This document shows positions 8,486-55,620 of a DNA stretch of 64,000 bases, piece after piece. Position 1 is the stretch's first letter. Each line of letters opens with the position of its first letter. The translations under genes were made by a program, and so were the position numbers. The DNA comes from a virus. Below the pieces are notes generated by a model. It was not told where the DNA came from. It worked only from the letters and a program-made list of their open reading frames with translations, and did no database searches. The stretch lies in UHGV virus genome UHGV-1384413. One strand, 5' to 3'.

Positions 8486-8905
8486 ATGAACATTAAATCT
8501 GATAATCCGGCATATAGCTTTGATAACGCTTTTTGTCACGGTCCGGCGGCGAAAGGATTCGAAATCGATGGTAAACTAATTATTGTCAATGTTGACGGGG
8601 AAGAGGTTGCAGTATATCCGGTGGCAGACGTTAAAAGCCGTCTACAATGCCGCATCGATGTTACCGCCTACCAGCTTGATCCGGTCCGGGTAGTTGCCCT
8701 GGTCCTGGAAGAAGAAATTAAAGCAATGCACCACAGCAACAAGTTTATTGGTGACGCTCAAGATAATATGCAGGTATGCCGCTATAAAGTTAATGAAGTG
8801 CTTAAAGAGTACGGCTATAAGGATTTAATGATCAAGCGTGATGAAAAATTCCGCTACCGTAACGACCTGGCAAATCGGATTTTTGAAATATACGAATCAT
8901 TATAA
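8486..8905 (+). CDS. hypothetical protein (139 aa)
   Basis: ATG with AAGAGGTAAAAACACC RBS; followed by terminator. Confidence 0.6.
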   Translation: MNIKSDNPAYSFDNAFCHGPAAKGFEIDGKLIIVNVDGEEVAVYPVADVKSRLQCRIDVTAYQLDPVRVVALVLEEEIKAMHHSNKFIGDAQDNMQVCRYKVNEVLKEYGYKDLMIKRDEKFRYRNDLANRIFEIYESL

Positions 8906-8924
8906 TTTCTTAACTGAATTATCA

Positions 8925-8950
8925 AGGGGCTTAAAGGCCCCTTTCTTTTT
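8925..8950 (+). terminator. rho-independent terminator
   Basis: GGGGC-TTAAAG-GCCCC hairpin followed by TTTCTTTTT. Confidence 0.7.
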
Positions 8951-11411
8951 GTCTGCTCTTCTCCTACCATAAACGGCCCTACCTGGCAAGTGGAATAATT
9001 GACTAGCCATCAATCCCACACACTGTATAAATATACATGGAAAATAACTATTGCATAATTTTTCATTGTGTGGTAGCAAGGCCATTTTTACCCGTTTTCT
9101 CTCCCAAAATTGCACGTAATGCCGCTATTGCACAAAATTTAACCTGATGCACATCTTCAACATCTTGTCAATAACTAAAAATCTTTATAAGTCATACACT
9201 TACACAACCATAAAGCCGTGTTCTACGTGAAAAATCGAGTATAACTATAGCCGCCAGATCTCAGAATTTACGTACGTTCACCATTCTATAGCCTGCAAAG
9301 TATTTATTCCAACCACAGAATAACGGAATAGTCAATACCTGCATAAAATAATTATTCGTGTAAACTGCATAACATAAATCAGCTCAGGTGTCAACATTTT
9401 TCGTAAGCAGTTCGAAATTGTCACGATAAGTTATTATACACAAAGAAATCTTTAGTCGTCTAATGGTTACTATACATTACTAATCTGACTGGAATCATTA
9501 GATGACTAAGAGAAAGATAAGAAATAATTAATAATGTAATTGTTTTACCTGTAACAATAAGGCAACTATGCAAACGAATGGCATGGCGCGACGGAGTCGC
9601 GACATAATATAAAAGCAGTAACCATCACCCCCGTGATAGTTTTTCTGCAATCTATTACTCAGATCATAGTTGCCTTGTATTTAGTTAATCATGACATAAC
9701 AAGCAAGGCAACTATAGATCTTCTAATAGTTGCCCTGCTTTTATATTATGTCATAGAAACGCCCGAAGGGGTGACCTAGTCACCTGGCATAGCCAGCGAA
9801 AGATTATTATCTTGTTAATTGTTTTCATGCAAACGAATGTCATGGCTTATCATCTATGCGTGAACTATCCAGGCGTAAACAGTCTATGCGGGAACAATCT
9901 ATACGGGAACAGTGAGGCATGCAATAGTAACAACTGTTATTGTATCCGGTGTGTTGAGTATGCCCGGTGTGTCACTATTATGTCACATTATGTCAGACAA
10001 GTTTTTCTCCTCTTTGTCAAGTGCTGCATGAAAAATTTACAAACTGGTATGGTAGCATTTTTGCGGCCCTGTTTACATTCAGAAATGTATGTATAATCCT
10101 TGGTGTGTGGGCGTTTAGACGTCTGGACGGTCAGAAGTCCGCAGGTCAATATCTAATCTATTGGTTGCTAACTATATCCCACACAAATAGTAAGAAATAT
10201 AATTGTTATGTGCGTAAACAGTAACCCATGTTATCAATCCCTGTATGTATCGCCAGTGGTGCGCATAATGGGTATTATGTTAAATTGCCCGTAATGATAA
10301 CTATTCTCACAATGATAGGTATTCTCATTCATCCCCACAAGATAGATTGCAAATGTTGTGCCACTGTGTGAACGGCCTGGTCTATTAATTTGCCTCACTG
10401 CCTCGATATTTGAGAATTATTATAAAAATGAGAAGTATTCCCATTCCGTCCGCCTGGCAGCACTCCTGTAGGACAAGCACAAAATCGGGGCATAACTGAC
10501 CTGTTCAGATATTTCTGGCTGACTCTTCAGGTCTGTGTGGGAAAAGCCAACCTCTCCGGCGGCGGGGTAGGGGTCAATTAAAAAATTTATGCGGTGTATG
10601 AAACCCTCTTCAGGCAAGGTGTGTATTATGGTATGAAACCCTCTTCAGGCAATGATATTTGTGGGTGTGATATTTGCTGGAAAGCCAGATATGACGGGAC
10701 TCCCGGCGGGGCAGGGGTAGTACAGACAGGGAAAATGTGGGGATGTAGTTGGGGAAATTGATCAGACAGGTAGAGTATGGAATATGTTATGAATATGTTA
10801 AATATGGAGGGTGAATATCTGTAGGATTTGTGTGTAAAATCAAAGACTTAAGTGGTGTTGTGGTATTTTCTATAAATAATTCAAGTTTAATAGGTAATAT
10901 TTGTCTCTATCCACTTTGTGTGGTAAACAGATTTAGATGAAATTGGTTTACAAGTGTATACATAATATACAAATTAAAGATACAAGAAACCCCCCTCCCC
11001 CTTCGGCTACCATTCACCTTTTCCTCTGACTGGTACTTAAACACTTATTCAGACTCTTCAGGTTATCACCCATATACTATATGGCAGTGACTGGTGTCCT
11101 CCGGCCCCTCTTTCGTCACCCGTCCGCTTCGCCAAGCTAATGCCATAGCCAAATGTTCGGTTGTTCACCCTGTTCACTCAGGTGTATCTCCATACCCCTT
11201 CAAACCGAAGAGAACAGAAAACCCGAATTACTCGGTAAAAGAAAAGAGAAGAACTTAATTTTATCAAGATAGGCAAGAATGTCAAGGGATGACTGCTCAC
11301 TAAACAAGCAAACAGTCATGTGTGGTAGGTAAGTGATTGTAGTGGTGGAAAATTTAGTTGAAAGATGTGTTATAGTGCTCCCAGCACTTTAGCCGGGCAG
11401 CTAATTGTGTG
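8951..11411. other. 2.4 kb AT-rich non-coding region with dyad and direct repeats
   Basis: No ORF with a credible RBS; palindromes and repeated AGGCAACTAT, ATGTCA and GTATGAAACCCTCTTCAGGCAA motifs. Confidence 0.6.
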
Positions 11412-11746: not shown

Positions 11747-11959
11747 TCATAGTCTCCCACCTCTGAACTCTTCGTGCTCAGGCATAATAGAGAACCAGAT
11801 ATCTACGATGTCTTCCCACGTTAGGTCATCAGCCTCAGGATCTACCTGGAGCGAAGATGGAGAATCTTCAGAATCGAAGTTTTCCTCTTTCACTGGCTCA
11901 GCCAAGGGACATATGGTCACTCCTTTGGATGTCTCTTCAGATGCATGTGTGTTGATCAT
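11747..11959 (-). CDS. hypothetical acidic protein (70 aa)
   Basis: ORF-track ORF, ATG start. Confidence 0.4.
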   Translation of the reverse strand: MINTHASEETSKGVTICPLAEPVKEENFDSEDSPSSLQVDPEADDLTWEDIVDIWFSIMPEHEEFRGGRL

Positions 11960-49452: not shown

Positions 49453-49499
49453 TCCCTGCTATTTTAAAGAAAATTGCCACACAAGGAGAATCAGGAGAT

Positions 49500-49850
49500 A
49501 TGAAAGATGGGGATAAGCTGCTATATCTTAAAGTCCCCCTTGAAATACTGTCTATGTCAAAAGTTTTGAATGACACAACTGGGGAGGTTGTTGTTCTTGA
49601 CTTATATGACAAGATCGTATACTGCTACCTGCACAACTGGTATAAGCTTGGAGAAAATTCACGCTTCACACCCAGCACAAGGAAAATTGCAGCAGATGTT
49701 GGGATAAAGAAAACAAAAGCAGCAGCGTGCGTTAAAACTTTAGAATGTGCAGGAGTGGTTGAAATATCCACACAAGGGAGAGGTAAAAGATGCACATTTT
49801 CCAAAGTTTTGCCACCAGAAGAAGTTATTCGAATGTCAACAACTGGTTAG
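49500..49850 (+). CDS. small DNA-binding protein (winged-helix/HTH-like), candidate iteron-binding protein
   Basis: TPSTRKIAADVGIKKTKAAACVKTLECAGVV resembles an HTH; immediately upstream of iteron array. Confidence 0.45.
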   Translation: MKDGDKLLYLKVPLEILSMSKVLNDTTGEVVVLDLYDKIVYCYLHNWYKLGENSRFTPSTRKIAADVGIKKTKAAACVKTLECAGVVEISTQGRGKRCTFSKVLPPEEVIRMSTTG

Positions 49851-49923
49851 ACCAGTAAAAACTTAAACATCTGTACTATAAGGATTTGTATGTTTTATGT
49901 TCACTCTGGAACAGAGGTTAGTA

Positions 49924-50007
49924 ACTGTCCGTGATACGGACACTACTGTCCGTCACGCGGACACATCTGCCCGTAGTACGGACACTAACTGTCCGTGATA
50001 CGGACAC
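49924..50007. repeat. four tandem palindromic iterons (ACTGTCCGT-N3-ACGGACAC) at 21-22 bp spacing
   Basis: Copies start at 49924, 49945, 49966, 49988; each has dyad GTCCGT/ACGGAC. Confidence 0.8.
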
Positions 50008-50150
50008 ATAAAGAATATAACTAAAATAACTAAATAATAAAAATAAAAGATCTAGCACTTATGGTACTAAAGTACATATACTTAACTTATGTAGAATATA
50101 CTAGATCCTAAGTACCATGTTTTAAATTTATTACTTATTACTTATTATGG
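50008..50150. other. AT-rich tract with short direct repeats (candidate DNA unwinding element)
   Basis: ATAACTAAA and TTACTTATT repeats and a GGTACT...AGTACC inverted repeat directly after iterons. Confidence 0.5.
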
Positions 50151-50154
50151 GTAG

Positions 50155-50400
50155 TGTCGGCCCTTCATTGGCACTCGCCTACGAGGGGCGAGATGCCGGG
50201 CCTCCGTAGTGCACACAATAACAGAAGTGCATACATGCAGGACTGTTAACATGTGTGGGAGCGAAGCGATAGCGCAGGCCAAAGGCCGAGCACTAATGTG
50301 GATCACCGACGAAAGCTTGCCAGCGCCGGAAGGAGTCGGTTGAGAGCCTCCCGCGCGAGTTCTGATAAAGTTTATGTGTGGAAACTGACAAGAAGGCTCC
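50155..50400. other. GC-rich ORF-free island (candidate structured RNA or DNA element)
   Basis: Composition contrast with AT-rich flanks; no ORF with RBS. Confidence 0.3.
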
Positions 50401-50517
50401 TAAATCGCTCCACAGCTATATAAACTATACCAAGTAAGGCAATCGCACCAGTTTGATAGAAAAGCTCGTTACAAAGCGATACAGTGAGTTTTTCTATAAC
50501 TTGAAGAGGAGGCTGCT

Positions 50518-51096
50518 ATGAGTTCACGCAAAGATGCCCGTGAAAAGATTGCAAAACGTTATCAGGATGAAGAACAGATGGAGAAAACTTTCAAGTGGAA
50601 GCCAGGTTTCCAGCGTAATCATTCTAACGCCCGTGATCGTAAGCATCCTGATAAGTGGCTAACACCGCCAAATGATGGCATGCAGGTTGGTGATGAGAAG
50701 GAGCTATCACCTGGAAAAGATGGCAACTACATTCGCACTAAGGACGCCAGTCCAAAGGATGACAGCTATCTTGTAGATAAGGTTCTTGATGGTATTGATG
50801 TAGATGTTGACACTGCACGAAACCTTTTTCTTGGTTGGTATCGTACAGGGTTTTTCGACATCAAGGCTATTCGTCGTGTTTGTGATATTAAAAAGTCTGC
50901 ATATGATGACGACTCGTTACATCGCACCCTGAGACAATATTCAGAAAGATATGGTCATCCGGTTATCACTCTTGACGATGTTAACGAAGTGATGTATCAT
51001 GCAGAGGTTGTTGCAGGCAGATTTGGTGATGCATATCTTGATATCCTTTCTGCAAACGATGAGGTAATGTTGAATAAGATTTACTATGAACGTTGA
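50518..51096 (+). CDS. hypothetical protein (192 aa)
   Basis: ATG with GAAGAGGAGG RBS. Confidence 0.6.
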   Translation: MSSRKDAREKIAKRYQDEEQMEKTFKWKPGFQRNHSNARDRKHPDKWLTPPNDGMQVGDEKELSPGKDGNYIRTKDASPKDDSYLVDKVLDGIDVDVDTARNLFLGWYRTGFFDIKAIRRVCDIKKSAYDDDSLHRTLRQYSERYGHPVITLDDVNEVMYHAEVVAGRFGDAYLDILSANDEVMLNKIYYER

Positions 51097-51639: not shown

Positions 51640-51900
51640 TATCCAATTTAAAGATGAGTTTGATGGCTTTATCTCCGGATGCTTTGAAACAGGGTTCGGA
51701 GAAGACTGAGTTCCCCTTAGAGGGCTTGATAGTGCACCACACTTAAAATGGTAGGGGCAGCCAGCACATGACGATGTGACCCCAGCCAACCTGTAATAAG
51801 GTCGAGCCAGAGCGCGGTAATGGGTATCTGGTAACCCACTTGTTGGGTCTTGCTGGTCCAGGACGCTGGGCAAGTCGCAGGGAATACCACCCTGCGGCGA
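51640..51900. other. GC-rich ORF-poor island (candidate structured ncRNA)
   Basis: Overlapping Pro/Gly-rich minus-strand ORFs in all frames typical of non-coding GC-rich sequence. Confidence 0.3.
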
Positions 51901-51903
51901 ACT

Positions 51904-51933
51904 TGACAATCAGTATTTGCCGTGATAAAATCC
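51904..51933 (+). promoter_or_regulatory. sigma70-like promoter (TTGACA ... GATAAAAT)
   Basis: Consensus -35 and extended -10 upstream of gene at 51960. Confidence 0.5.
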
Positions 51934-51959
51934 ACCTATCACGTGATAATGGAGGAAAC

Positions 51960-52863: not shown

Positions 52864-52960
52864 GCTAGGTAAGCCCTTTGGCAAGGGCGAGGATTTTTAA
52901 TCCTGAAAATAGACGAGGTAGTCGTTGAATACATAGGTGGTTCGATTCCATCACCTAGCA
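52864..52960 (+). tRNA. atypical tRNA-like gene (possible anticodon TTT) with about 30-nt variable region
   Basis: Perfect 7-bp acceptor stem, D-arm and T-arm; anticodon stem only 4 bp; no CCA encoded. Confidence 0.45.
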
Positions 52961-52966
52961 CCTTTT

Positions 52967-54311: not shown

Positions 54312-54736
54312 TGTCTAAGATTTACGGACCGTGTTCTGAAAAGCAGAAGATGATCCTAGAGAACGATGCAGATATTTTGGTGATCGGAGGTGCAGCTGGG
54401 TCTGGCAAGTCGTTCCTCTTGCAGCTAATGCCGCTTAAAATTATTGATGACCCGCACAGCTCTGTGGTTATGTTCCGAAGAACAACTCCCCAGTTGGAAG
54501 GTGAGGGTGGGCTATGGCCTAAAGCAGTAGCTATTTACAGTGATCTGCCTGAAAACATTAAACCAAAGTTCAGAGAGAAGGATCATAAGTTTATTTTTCC
54601 ACGGTTTGATCCGAGCACTGGCAAGTGGGATAGGAGCAAAAAGGGGGCCGTTGTAAAATACTGCCACATGGAGTATGTCCAAGATAAGCTTAACCATCAA
54701 GGCCTTGAGTACACCATGGTTTGCTTCGATGAGGGT
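54311..54736 (+). CDS. terL: terminase large subunit, exon 1 (ATPase N-terminal part)
   Basis: Walker A GGAAGSGKS; ORF ends right after Walker B-like MVCFDEG; AAGGAGAG RBS. Confidence 0.65.
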
Positions 54737-55620
54737 TAATTTGTAGCTCTCGTAAAACCTCCCTAATTGCGGGGAAATCTTTATTATTGACACCACCAAC
54801 CTGTCATGGTAACATGATAGAGGCTTCGAAGAGAGATCGAAGGTATGGTAACAGTGTGTTAATTTAGATAATCCGCAGCGAAGCATCCGAGAGGATGAAC
54901 GTTCAACGACTAGTCGAAAGACGTAGAATCAAGCGATTCGAAACGGGAGGGTGAATGTGTAATACTAAAAAAATGTATGGATTGCCAAAGAGTTCTGCCT
55001 CTTGATGATTTCTTTTTATCATCTAAGAGCAAGGATGGATACTCAGGTACATGCAAGGAATGCTATATGTACTACAGGAAGAATGGATCTCGTAGAAACA
55101 AAAATATGGTTAAGAGAGATGATGCAGCATCTTTTGTTCAAGACTTGCTGAAGAAAGGTGAGCTTTTTGAATGTAAATCTTGTCATGAAAGTATGCTTGC
55201 TGATAGTTTTTACACAAAGCGTGACTATGGTAAAGTGTATCTGGTTACGAACAGGTGTAAGATGTGTGAAAAGTTTTATCAGATTGAGAAGAAATTTCAC
55301 ATAACAAAAGATGAATACTATCGTTTACTCTCAGATCAAGATCATAAGTGTGCCATTTGTAGAATATCTCTTGATGAGTATAGGACGCAAGGGTACAGAG
55401 ATTTCTTTTGTGTTGATCATGACCATAAAACTGGTGCTGTAAGAGGGTTGCTTTGTGATAAATGCAACAGAGCTTTAGGGTTCTTCCAAGAGGATGAGGA
55501 AACCATTCTTAGAGCAGCAGAGTATTTGCACATTCATAAGATATAGTCTGGTCTGCATGGAGACATGCAGCTGCCTGAAAATGGCGGGGCAAGACTAGCG
55601 ACCTTGCCCGAACATAAACG
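54737..55620 (+). mobile_element. putative group I intron carrying an HNH homing endonuclease gene
   Basis: Interrupts terL after Walker B; last exon base is T and last intron base is G; boundaries inferred. Confidence 0.5.
54977..55546 (+). CDS. HNH homing endonuclease
   Basis: CxxC zinc sites and DHDHKTGAVRGLLCDKCN HNH core. Confidence 0.7.
   Translation: MDCQRVLPLDDFFLSSKSKDGYSGTCKECYMYYRKNGSRRNKNMVKRDDAASFVQDLLKKGELFECKSCHESMLADSFYTKRDYGKVYLVTNRCKMCEKFYQIEKKFHITKDEYYRLLSDQDHKCAICRISLDEYRTQGYRDFFCVDHDHKTGAVRGLLCDKCNRALGFFQEDEETILRAAEYLHIHKI

Follow-up and report, generated by a model that had tools for sequence, protein, structure and literature searches.

A GC-rich array of covarying stem-loops at the probable replication origin of Vequintavirus phages, common to plasmids that are probably their satellites

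The island analyzed here spans positions 50155-50400 of a 64,000-nucleotide stretch of the virus genome UHGV-1384413, called the window throughout. Comparison of region 49800-50600 with phage records gives 119 matches (87-99% identity), all of them to rV5-like myoviruses of the genus Vequintavirus, some filed under other host names. The island is found in all 119 records, in one copy per genome. In phage rV5 it is flanked by open reading frame (ORF) 79, whose product is annotated as a replication initiation protein, and by ORF 77, and it shares its strand with the tRNA cluster, the large-terminase gene with its introns and every structural gene. Phages of the rV5 type are among the most commonly isolated Escherichia coli phages, and are used in therapy cocktails; we know of no prior characterisation of their origin, packaging signal or satellites. 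The island is more than a composition anomaly. It is a structured element, found once per genome at what is probably the origin of all Vequintaviruses, and is common to plasmids which are probably satellites of these phages; it marks the probable origin precisely, and is an unannotated structured feature in every sequenced Vequintavirus.

A sequence-only reading of the window had pointed to an ORF-free, GC-rich patch of about 250 bp, and proposed either a structured RNA (a leader or a small RNA) or a DNA structural element linked to an origin. The anomaly of composition is real. The GC content is 0.561 in the island (56.1%), 0.248 in the left flank (49990-50154) and 0.393 in the right flank (50401-50517). 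The mean of 246-nt windows over the 64 kb is 0.425 (standard deviation 0.036), and the island is the maximum, the peak starting at 50154; no other window of this size reaches the same value. The stretch of sequence quoted in that reading is found exactly at 50156-50205.

Taken literally, the island is not free of ORFs, as frames of 31, 44 and 56 aa with GTG starts overlap it, but none behaves as a gene. The 56-aa frame is called 'ORF 78' in the rV5 annotation, appears among the hypothetical proteins of some other records, and is open in 9 of 13 phages, which might speak for a small protein. Variable sites, however, fall at codon positions 1/2/3 in the proportions 16/20/21, 3/5/6 and 10/7/4 in the three ORFs, with no excess at third positions, and most differences within the 56-aa frame alter the amino acid. 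Frames are cut or fused by indels of 1 and 18 nt in Alma, Ph206, Murica, rV5, Aya and a contig from IMG/VR, the 56-aa frame being interrupted in Alma and Ph206 and fused elsewhere. The GTG starts lack a Shine-Dalgarno sequence, and the plasmid copies described below lose the frame through a 1-nt indel ahead of the stem-loop named P3. Since codon periodicity is lacking, frames are broken by indels and none is kept in the plasmids, the island is non-coding, and a gene for a small protein such as 'ORF 78' is effectively excluded.

Three features lie to the left of the island:

49500-49850, + strand: gene for a winged-helix replication initiator of 116 aa (rV5 ORF 79), recognised by phrog_12838, PF13730 and RefSeq
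49922-50007, no strand assigned: four iterons with the palindrome TGTCCGTNNNACGGACA, at 21-22 bp spacing (repeat family D1, inverted repeats I6-I8)
50008-50154, no strand assigned: AT-rich stretch of about 145 bp (about 25% GC; 0.248 over 49990-50154), a candidate DNA-unwinding element

The 116-aa protein matches phrog_12838 'replication initiation protein' at 2.4e-79, as well as PF13730 HTH_36 and DUF6945, and is labelled replication initiation protein in RefSeq. The iterons are entered as repeat_region in the records of phages pangalan and Alma. The candidate origin noticed earlier upstream of the island is thus supported by four palindromic repeats and an AT-rich stretch, downstream of a gene of an initiator family. 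Repeats spaced by helical turns, next to an AT-rich stretch and to an initiator gene, probably form, to judge from sequence features, an iteron-type origin.

A promoter-like site (TTTAAA-16-TATTAT, sigma-70-like score 9/12) is found at 50121-50148, with a predicted transcript start at about 50155. The site arises from a 7-nt duplication (TTATTAC) specific to the window and not present in other Vequintaviruses, and no matching site was found in pangalan or in L019, a relative considered below. Because of its dependence on the duplication, it was rejected as a conserved feature, and hence as the 5' end of an RNA. No terminator-like sites were detected anywhere in 49800-50600. A discrete small-RNA gene was similarly discarded, as no conserved promoter is found upstream of the element in pangalan, L019 or the plasmids, and no terminator in 49800-50600. 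Readings of short motifs as DnaA boxes or T7-type primase sites were also set aside, being neither conserved nor statistically meaningful.

The island itself is an array of the following parts:

50159-50202, + strand: H1, a long GC-rich stem-loop (fold, invariance, compensatory pairs)
50206-50251, + strand: variable middle segment (18-nt deletion in rV5 and Murica; about 70% identity to the IMG/VR relative)
50252-50259, + strand: linker motif TGTGTGGG, which also divides stem-loop modules in the plasmid arrays
50260-50294, + strand: small tight hairpins, GC-GAA-GC at 50261-67 and GGCC-AAA-GGCC at 50277-87 (consensus and single-sequence folds)
50295-50340, + strand: motif AATGTGGA (50295-302) and stem-loop P3 (covariation)
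50344-50381, + strand: GAGCCTCCCGCGCG (50344-57) and candidate hairpin H4 (consensus fold)
50399-50408, + strand: short motif CCTAAATCGC, with the plasmid form CCTAAATGGC (one occurrence in the window)

Relatives of the array were sought by pattern scans of IMG/VR, a scan of one genome per species, a pattern scan of metagenomes, and BLAST on complete E. coli genomes and plasmids. The IMG/VR scans yielded one real relative, the remainder being chance 17-mers; the scan of one genome per species found no homologue, and the metagenome scan gave 5 real and 5 chance matches. In circular 'plasmids' of 13.2-13.7 kb, BLAST located fragments of the island with identities of 83-87%. Adding the metagenome scan and protein-based look-ups, 17 array copies were collected on contigs of 13.2-14.3 kb. 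The plasmid family takes in loci L020-L022, L027, L032-L034 and L038-L048 (for example NZ_CP020521.1, NZ_CP035869.1 and CP134895.1). L021 (NZ_CP043822.1, 39,610 bp) is a head-to-tail trimer of a 13.2-kb unit, with deletions within the structural genes of one copy, and may be either an assembly artefact or a real concatemer. It was through the array that this family of 13-14 kb plasmids, carried by E. coli isolates of clinical and animal origin, came to light.

These plasmids encode their own capsid and tape-measure proteins, a Dit-like protein (54% aa identity to rV5 ORF 48), and a protein 48% identical to rV5 ORF 56, a neck/tail-completion protein. They also encode an O-like/HTH_36 initiator, the matches to O-like families being weak, and small helix-turn-helix (HTH) proteins. 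No terminase, portal, sheath or fibres were recognisable by Pfam and PHROGs. Gene content therefore combines some virion genes related to those of a helper with the lack of terminase, portal and most tail genes. Because capsid and tail genes are related to rV5 and a recognisable terminase is missing, the plasmids are probably satellites of rV5-like phages, which they probably parasitise, and are called satellites hereafter. The family appears to be undescribed: the set of papers searched contained none on an rV5 non-coding RNA, on the rV5 origin, or on satellites of rV5-like phages. The array is the only non-coding DNA common to helper and satellites. A single cluster of satellite capsid proteins comprises 441 sequences. 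Short stretches of DNA, matching at 82-88%, tie the satellite initiator gene (L020 10882-10938) to 9755-9803 and 11884-11940 in the window, and may encode a shared DNA-binding motif.

Comparative alignment, which had been proposed along with the first description of the island, revealed compensatory changes in P3, in H1 and in satellite modules. The P3 stem pairs 50305-10 with 50335-40, and encloses a 24-nt loop, GAAAGCTTGCCAGCGCCG(G/T)AAGGA, at 50311-34. Most phages have ACCGAC/GTCGGT as the stem, three have GCCGAC/GTCGGT (with a G.U pair), and satellites have GCTGCC/GGCAGC. All pairs (100%) are formed in 10 distinct sequences, three of six pairs are changed on both sides (A-U, G.U and G-C; C-G and U-A; A-U and C-G), and the pairing exceeds all slid controls. 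The loop is invariant at 24 of 24 nucleotides across phages and 11 satellites, and its sequence occurs once in the 138-kb rV5 genome. The GGAA/GTAA tetraloop in P3 varies, the GNRA form being retained. Core strings GAAAGCTTGCC, CCCGCGCG and CCTAAATCGC also occur once each in rV5.

H1 has an outer stem (50159-63 with 50198-202) and an inner stem of 10 bp (50170-79 with 50187-97, with a bulged A at 50193), closed by a 7-nt loop. Its fold has an energy of -28.1 kcal/mol (z -3.2), and 14 phages show no variation in it. Two satellites, L020 and L045, also have H1, with two compensatory pairs (GGCA/TGCC to GTCA/TGAC, and CTCGCC/GGCGAG to CTCTCC/GGAGAG). Changes of the same kind mark the satellite modules: GUCAC/GUGAC is replaced by GUGCU/AGCAC, UUUAGCU/AGCUAAA by UUAAGCU/AGCUUAA, and GUGCC/GGCAC by GUGCU/AGCAC, and a compensated insertion of a base pair turns UUAGCC/GGCUAA into UUAAGCC/GGCUUAA. 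The element is under selection and its stems covary; stem-loops kept by compensatory substitutions between phages and satellite plasmids confirm that the island is structured. Shuffling of the whole island gives a z of about -3 on both strands (-3.4 on the - strand).

Other parts of the array are less sharply defined. H4 pairs CCGCGC (50351-56) with GTGTGG (50376-81) and, as two of its pairs are G.U, forms on the + strand only. The consensus fold features one compensated pair, G.U to G-C in two sequences, and one pair broken in one sequence, and satellites L033 and L034 have a local CCCGCGC-N4-GUGUGGG hairpin. Support for H4 is rated moderate, since its bases could pair instead with 50253-62 or 50297-301. 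The segment of small hairpins at 50260-50294 is homologous to satellite module F, AGCGTAGTGCGA(A/TA)GCACGTAGCT. The middle segment is apparently dispensable: rV5 and Murica lack 18 nt of this linker, and a hairpin drawn at 50206-50251 was discarded, its pairs being broken in pangalan and deleted in rV5. Three more helices were rejected for lack of covariation, the long-range helix GAGCGA/TCGCTC proposed by RNAalifold and the candidates UGUGUGGGAG/CUCCCGCGCG and UGUGG/CCGCG; all three are partly broken in L019 and EduardK.

Conservation is uneven along the island. Two divergent relatives, one an IMG/VR contig and one a Logan contig, encode an ORF 77 protein 82% identical to that of the window. 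Identity to the IMG/VR contig is 95.9% in H1, 92.4% in the 3' domain, about 70% in the two linkers, and 83.1% in the neighbouring gene. Absence of conservation, along with absence of a transcript, had been named at the outset as a result that would speak against a functional element; two sub-elements, H1 and the 3' domain, exceed the adjacent gene. In the two divergent relatives, L003 and L019, an unrelated module, consisting of a gene for a 143-aa protein and palindromic repeats of 23 nt, stands in place of initiator gene, iterons and AT-rich stretch. The cassette swapped corresponds to 49462-50154 in the window, with break points at the end of a phosphoesterase gene and at 50155. Because homology of L003 and L019 to the window resumes exactly at 50155, the element stays put while the initiator/iteron module is exchanged. 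Both flanking proteins are limited to Vequintavirus.

Satellite arrays follow a common plan. Every copy shows, in this order, iterons, a short AT-rich stretch, two GC-rich hairpins, stem-loop modules and P3; P3 is followed by a CGCGCG tract, an alternating purine-pyrimidine tract and then CCTAAATGGC. The sigma-70 promoters of the satellite initiator operon lie about 200-300 nt beyond CCTAAATGGC. Satellite iterons are of at least five sequence types, spaced 23 bp. Modules are divided by TGTGTG(TG)GGG linkers and keep the fixed order A, B, C, D, their presence or absence varying by copy as expected from deletion between linkers. P3 comes in two forms. Eleven copies have the phage 24-nt loop on a different stem, and six have another stem of 8 bp, GTCCGGAT/ATCCGGAC, and an 18-nt loop; no match to the latter form was found in the phage collection. 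Hairpins with T-runs, located between array and iterons in satellites and in one divergent phage (L033 494-607; L019 2593-2622), are terminator-like on the opposite strand only, and no promoter matching them was found.

Such plasticity raises the question of whether the array has any sequence-specific role. It might be a hairpin-prone GC spacer which keeps unwinding from spreading out of the AT-rich stretch or shields the origin from transcription, or a recombination-prone array exchanged between helper and satellite. The number and content of satellite modules fit deletion between the TGTGTG(TG)GGG direct repeats, loop sequences are freely variable, the middle segment can be missed in rV5 and Murica, and terminator-like hairpins flank the origin side in satellites and L019. 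Yet H1, the P3 loop and the CCCGCGCG flank are conserved above the adjacent gene, and compensatory changes denote selection on specific stems, which makes a mere spacer unlikely.

In replicons of three kinds, the window-type phages, L003/L019 and the 17 satellite copies, the array comes after iterons and an AT-rich stretch, in one orientation and once per genome, iterons and initiators of the three kinds being unrelated. This layout, together with the swap boundary at 50155, associates the element with the origin. As the layout is constant across the three replicon types, we favour the reading in which the array is an origin-associated signal, folding as a single + strand and marking the start of priming or helicase loading. 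We assign this reading, which is drawn from sequence comparison, a probability of about 0.35. According to it, the small initiator would bind the four iterons and open the adjoining AT-rich stretch. Opening would expose the + strand of the GC-rich block, the lagging-strand template of a rightward fork, and the exposed strand would fold into H1, the small hairpins and P3, joined by G/T-rich linkers. The folded strand would then serve as a start site for priming, for the loading of a primase-helicase like gp4 of phage T7, or both. The array would accordingly be a single-strand initiation (ssi) signal, a type of element known from the neighbourhood of plasmid and small-phage origins. rV5 encodes a DnaB-family primase-helicase, ORF 230, and a T7-like polymerase, whereas satellites encode the initiator only (O-like/HTH_36); satellites, with their own initiator and iterons and no replisome, would keep the same type of array, most of them with the phage-type P3 loop.

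Signals of the ssi or primosome type (the complementary-strand origin of phage G4, the G4-type ssi of plasmids R1/R100, ssiA and ssiB of RSF1010) are, along with lambda-type origins, the nearest in architecture. They too are non-coding blocks of hairpins on one strand, occurring once beside an origin with iterons and an AT-rich stretch, and the strand and orientation of the array fit priming of the lagging-strand template next to the unwound region. In RSF1010 the layout is the same as here, iterons being followed by an AT-rich stretch and by hairpin signals. Stable covarying hairpins do lie beside the origin in the phages and satellites, strand preference being only suggestive. The array differs from known ssi signals in showing no sequence similarity to them, in being much longer (250-450 nt) and modular, with a priming role that is predicted, and in being specific to a virulent phage and its putative satellites rather than host-generic. 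Lambda-type origins resemble the one here in having four dyad iterons about two helical turns apart, followed by AT-rich and then by inverted-repeat DNA, and satellite initiators weakly match O-like families; here, on the other hand, the origin lies outside the initiator gene, the initiator has only 116 aa, the block is far larger, and stems covary. Further points are more easily read on DNA. Well-supported stems are perfectly Watson-Crick, mostly with 3-nt loops and with almost no G.U over about 90 bp. C-GAA-G mini-hairpins occur in three modules, and d(GCGAAGC) is an unusually stable DNA hairpin noted at phage origins. The array is located upstream of the satellite operon promoters, and always adjoins iterons, whatever the initiator.

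Several observations weigh against the proposed initiation signal. To our knowledge, iteron origins do not generally need a signal of this sort. The element was not found in other genera of the subfamily, being present in Vequintavirus only. In six of the 17 satellites the phage-type P3 loop is missing and the CGCGCG flank has diverged, and thus not every satellite needs the sequence in common with the helper. Folding stability favours the + strand over the - strand in 16 of 17 copies, but this edge may simply reflect G-richness and a positive GC skew. C-UUCG-G loops in two satellite modules and the GNRA form in P3 are typical of RNA. In phage and satellites alike, the element points the same way as the genes downstream. 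Since no terminator separates it from the initiator gene, read-through probably carries transcription into the phage copy; the strand evidence is therefore just as compatible with a + strand RNA.

A structured + strand RNA, either a stable processed non-coding RNA or a cis-acting element heading the rightward gene block, is accordingly a possible alternative, held to be nearly as likely as the initiation signal. Variants of it would be a modifier of RNA polymerase similar to put or nut, or a platform for a helper protein, copied so that the satellite operon responds to infection. Besides the points just made, covariation of the stems and the z of the whole-island shuffle are in line with an RNA, and some pairs hold on the + strand only: the G.U pair found in P3 in three phages, those in H4, and a satellite hairpin in which the series AUGC/GCAU, AUGC/GUAU, AUGU/GUAU stays paired on that strand alone. 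The element also lies near the start of an approximately 50-kb unidirectional block which includes the terminase and all structural genes. Against an RNA stand the lack of a conserved promoter upstream and of a terminator downstream, the location of satellite operon promoters beyond the element, and left-hand hairpins resembling terminators on the opposite strand only. The near-absence of G.U pairs and the many 3-nt loops are unusual for RNA, the - strand folds nearly as well, and constant adjacency to iterons is left unexplained. HK022 put and lambda nut are likewise cis-acting RNA stem-loops with which long phage operons begin; they differ in that here no sequence or Rfam match was found, no promoter is located directly upstream, and the satellite element precedes the operon promoters.

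The Rfam scan suggested at the outset matched no family to the island. With Rfam 15 at the gathering threshold, the whole window yielded only tRNAs and a group I intron, and three whole satellites no match; at E<=10, region 49800-50600 gave only chance-level matches outside the core of the island. The best resemblance, below threshold and confined to satellites, is to the signal recognition particle (SRP) RNA. The P3 region of L033 (692-779) aligns end to end with RF00169 at 20.8 bits, the gathering score being 40. The alignment rests on CCAG..CC-GGAA-GGAGGCAGC, the string of the Ffh-binding domain. The satellite P3 region, CCAGCGCC-GGAA-GGAGGCAGCAAAG, recalls domain IV of 4.5S RNA, and matches the E. 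coli 4.5S RNA sequence, UCAGGUCC-GGAA-GGAAGCAGCCAAGG, at about 20 of 26 positions. It departs from 4.5S RNA in the many non-standard pairs of the RF00169 alignment, and the phage copy gives no match. Identity with a small SRP RNA was rejected, the score being below threshold and covariation backing the P3 pairing instead. Of the initial proposal, structure and, by synteny, association with the origin stand, and the leader falls, as detailed below; the sequence accommodates either RNA or DNA as the folded strand.

A third role to be weighed is that of a packaging (pac) site for the helper terminase, in which repeats of the TGTGTGG type would be binding sites for the small terminase and which satellites would carry without a terminase of their own. 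The array occurs once per genome, and nothing else non-coding is shared by helper and satellites, in which no terminase was detected. It lies, co-oriented, about 4 kb upstream of the large-terminase gene, and in it a motif of 7-10 nt is directly repeated every 44-80 bp. Headful (pac-type) packaging has been inferred for Vequintaviruses (PMC13211470), which agrees with such a site. PhageTerm analysis, in contrast, found these phages to be circularly permuted, without fixed termini (PMC8407724), and for this reason a strong unique pac site may not exist. In addition, a site bound by protein as double-stranded DNA leaves unexplained compensatory changes which preserve complementarity only. The phage-type P3 loop is dispensed with in 6/17 satellites, the number of repeats ranges from 1 to 5 among satellites, and no small-terminase gene was recognised next to the element. 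A pac site is hence improbable, more so than a spacer without specific role.

Whichever process is involved, the array might be the handle by which plasmid-borne satellites exploit virulent rV5-like phages, a signal read by the replisome or by the packaging motor of the helper. This is a doubtful proposition, though one with consequences. Should it be true, the two types of satellite P3 would match different helper lineages. If the array is the point of contact between helper and satellite, it would provide a compact, mutable target for studying the hijack of replication or packaging and the ways in which satellites might interfere with therapeutic phages. The nearest systems in logic are P2/P4 (cos, late promoters) and PLE/ICP1 (replication hijack), where a satellite with its own initiator and iterons, a virulent helper and a shared unique non-coding element are also found. 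Differences are that the element shared here is a covarying stem-loop array, that the satellites are plasmids and not integrated islands, and that dependence on the helper is inferred here from gene content only.

Two features follow the island on its right:

50436-50517, + strand: segment of the 5' untranslated region conserved in phages only, with a hairpin (arms 50456-67 and 50486-97; inverted repeat I11)
50518-51096, + strand: downstream gene, rV5 ORF 77, 192 aa, with phrog_12226 (unknown function) as sole match

No Pfam family matched ORF 77, and its AlphaFold model (pLDDT, the predicted local distance difference test, 49.5) is too poor for a structure search. A homologue, P0006, is 51% identical and is found among DNA-metabolism genes, with only a gap of 59 nt upstream and no leader. 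The proposal that the island is the leader of the downstream gene does not hold, as satellites have the element without ORF 77 and their sigma-70 promoters are downstream of it, P0006 is leaderless, and the promoter-like site is specific to the window and absent in typical relatives. A 5' leader or riboswitch of ORF 77 was rejected on the same grounds, the linkage to a regulated gene being missing in satellites and at P0006. The segment at 50436-50517 is a different matter. It is 90.2% identical to the IMG/VR relative, near-invariant in 10 phages, and absent from satellites. Its hairpin has A-tract and U-tract arms, and lies directly 5' of the ORF 77 ribosome-binding site. The segment may be a translational or attenuation element.

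The linker motif TGTGTGGG is present 13 times in the window, against 1.95 copies expected and a maximum of 6 in 100 shuffles. Copies are found, for example, at 9022(-), 10104(+), 10185(-) and 10534(+), and several lie a few bases past -10-like hexamers in a large non-coding region, as if they were transcript starts. About 2.4 kb of the window (approximately 8900-11300; rV5 104013-106618, unannotated) are without annotated genes, and contain promoter-like sites on both strands, repeats and hairpins. The sequence CCCACACAAATAGTAAG at 10178-10194 resembles the one just upstream of H1 in satellite L020.

A second GC-rich non-coding island (about 54%) is found at 51650-51950, upstream of the promoter of ORF 74, whose product is a basic/acidic protein of 112 aa. 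Structure in this second island is weak (z -1.6), and no similarity to the island at 50155-50400 or to satellites was found. A tRNA-like gene of 99 nt at 52864-52962, with an odd 4-base anticodon according to ARAGORN and an Rfam score of 35.5 bits, is reported as 'tRNA-OTHER' in pangalan and is not listed in the rV5 record. The group I intron found by Rfam lies at 54727-55570 (50.9 bits, just above the gathering score), in a region matching the large-terminase gene of rV5, which is annotated as three exons with an internal HNH endonuclease.

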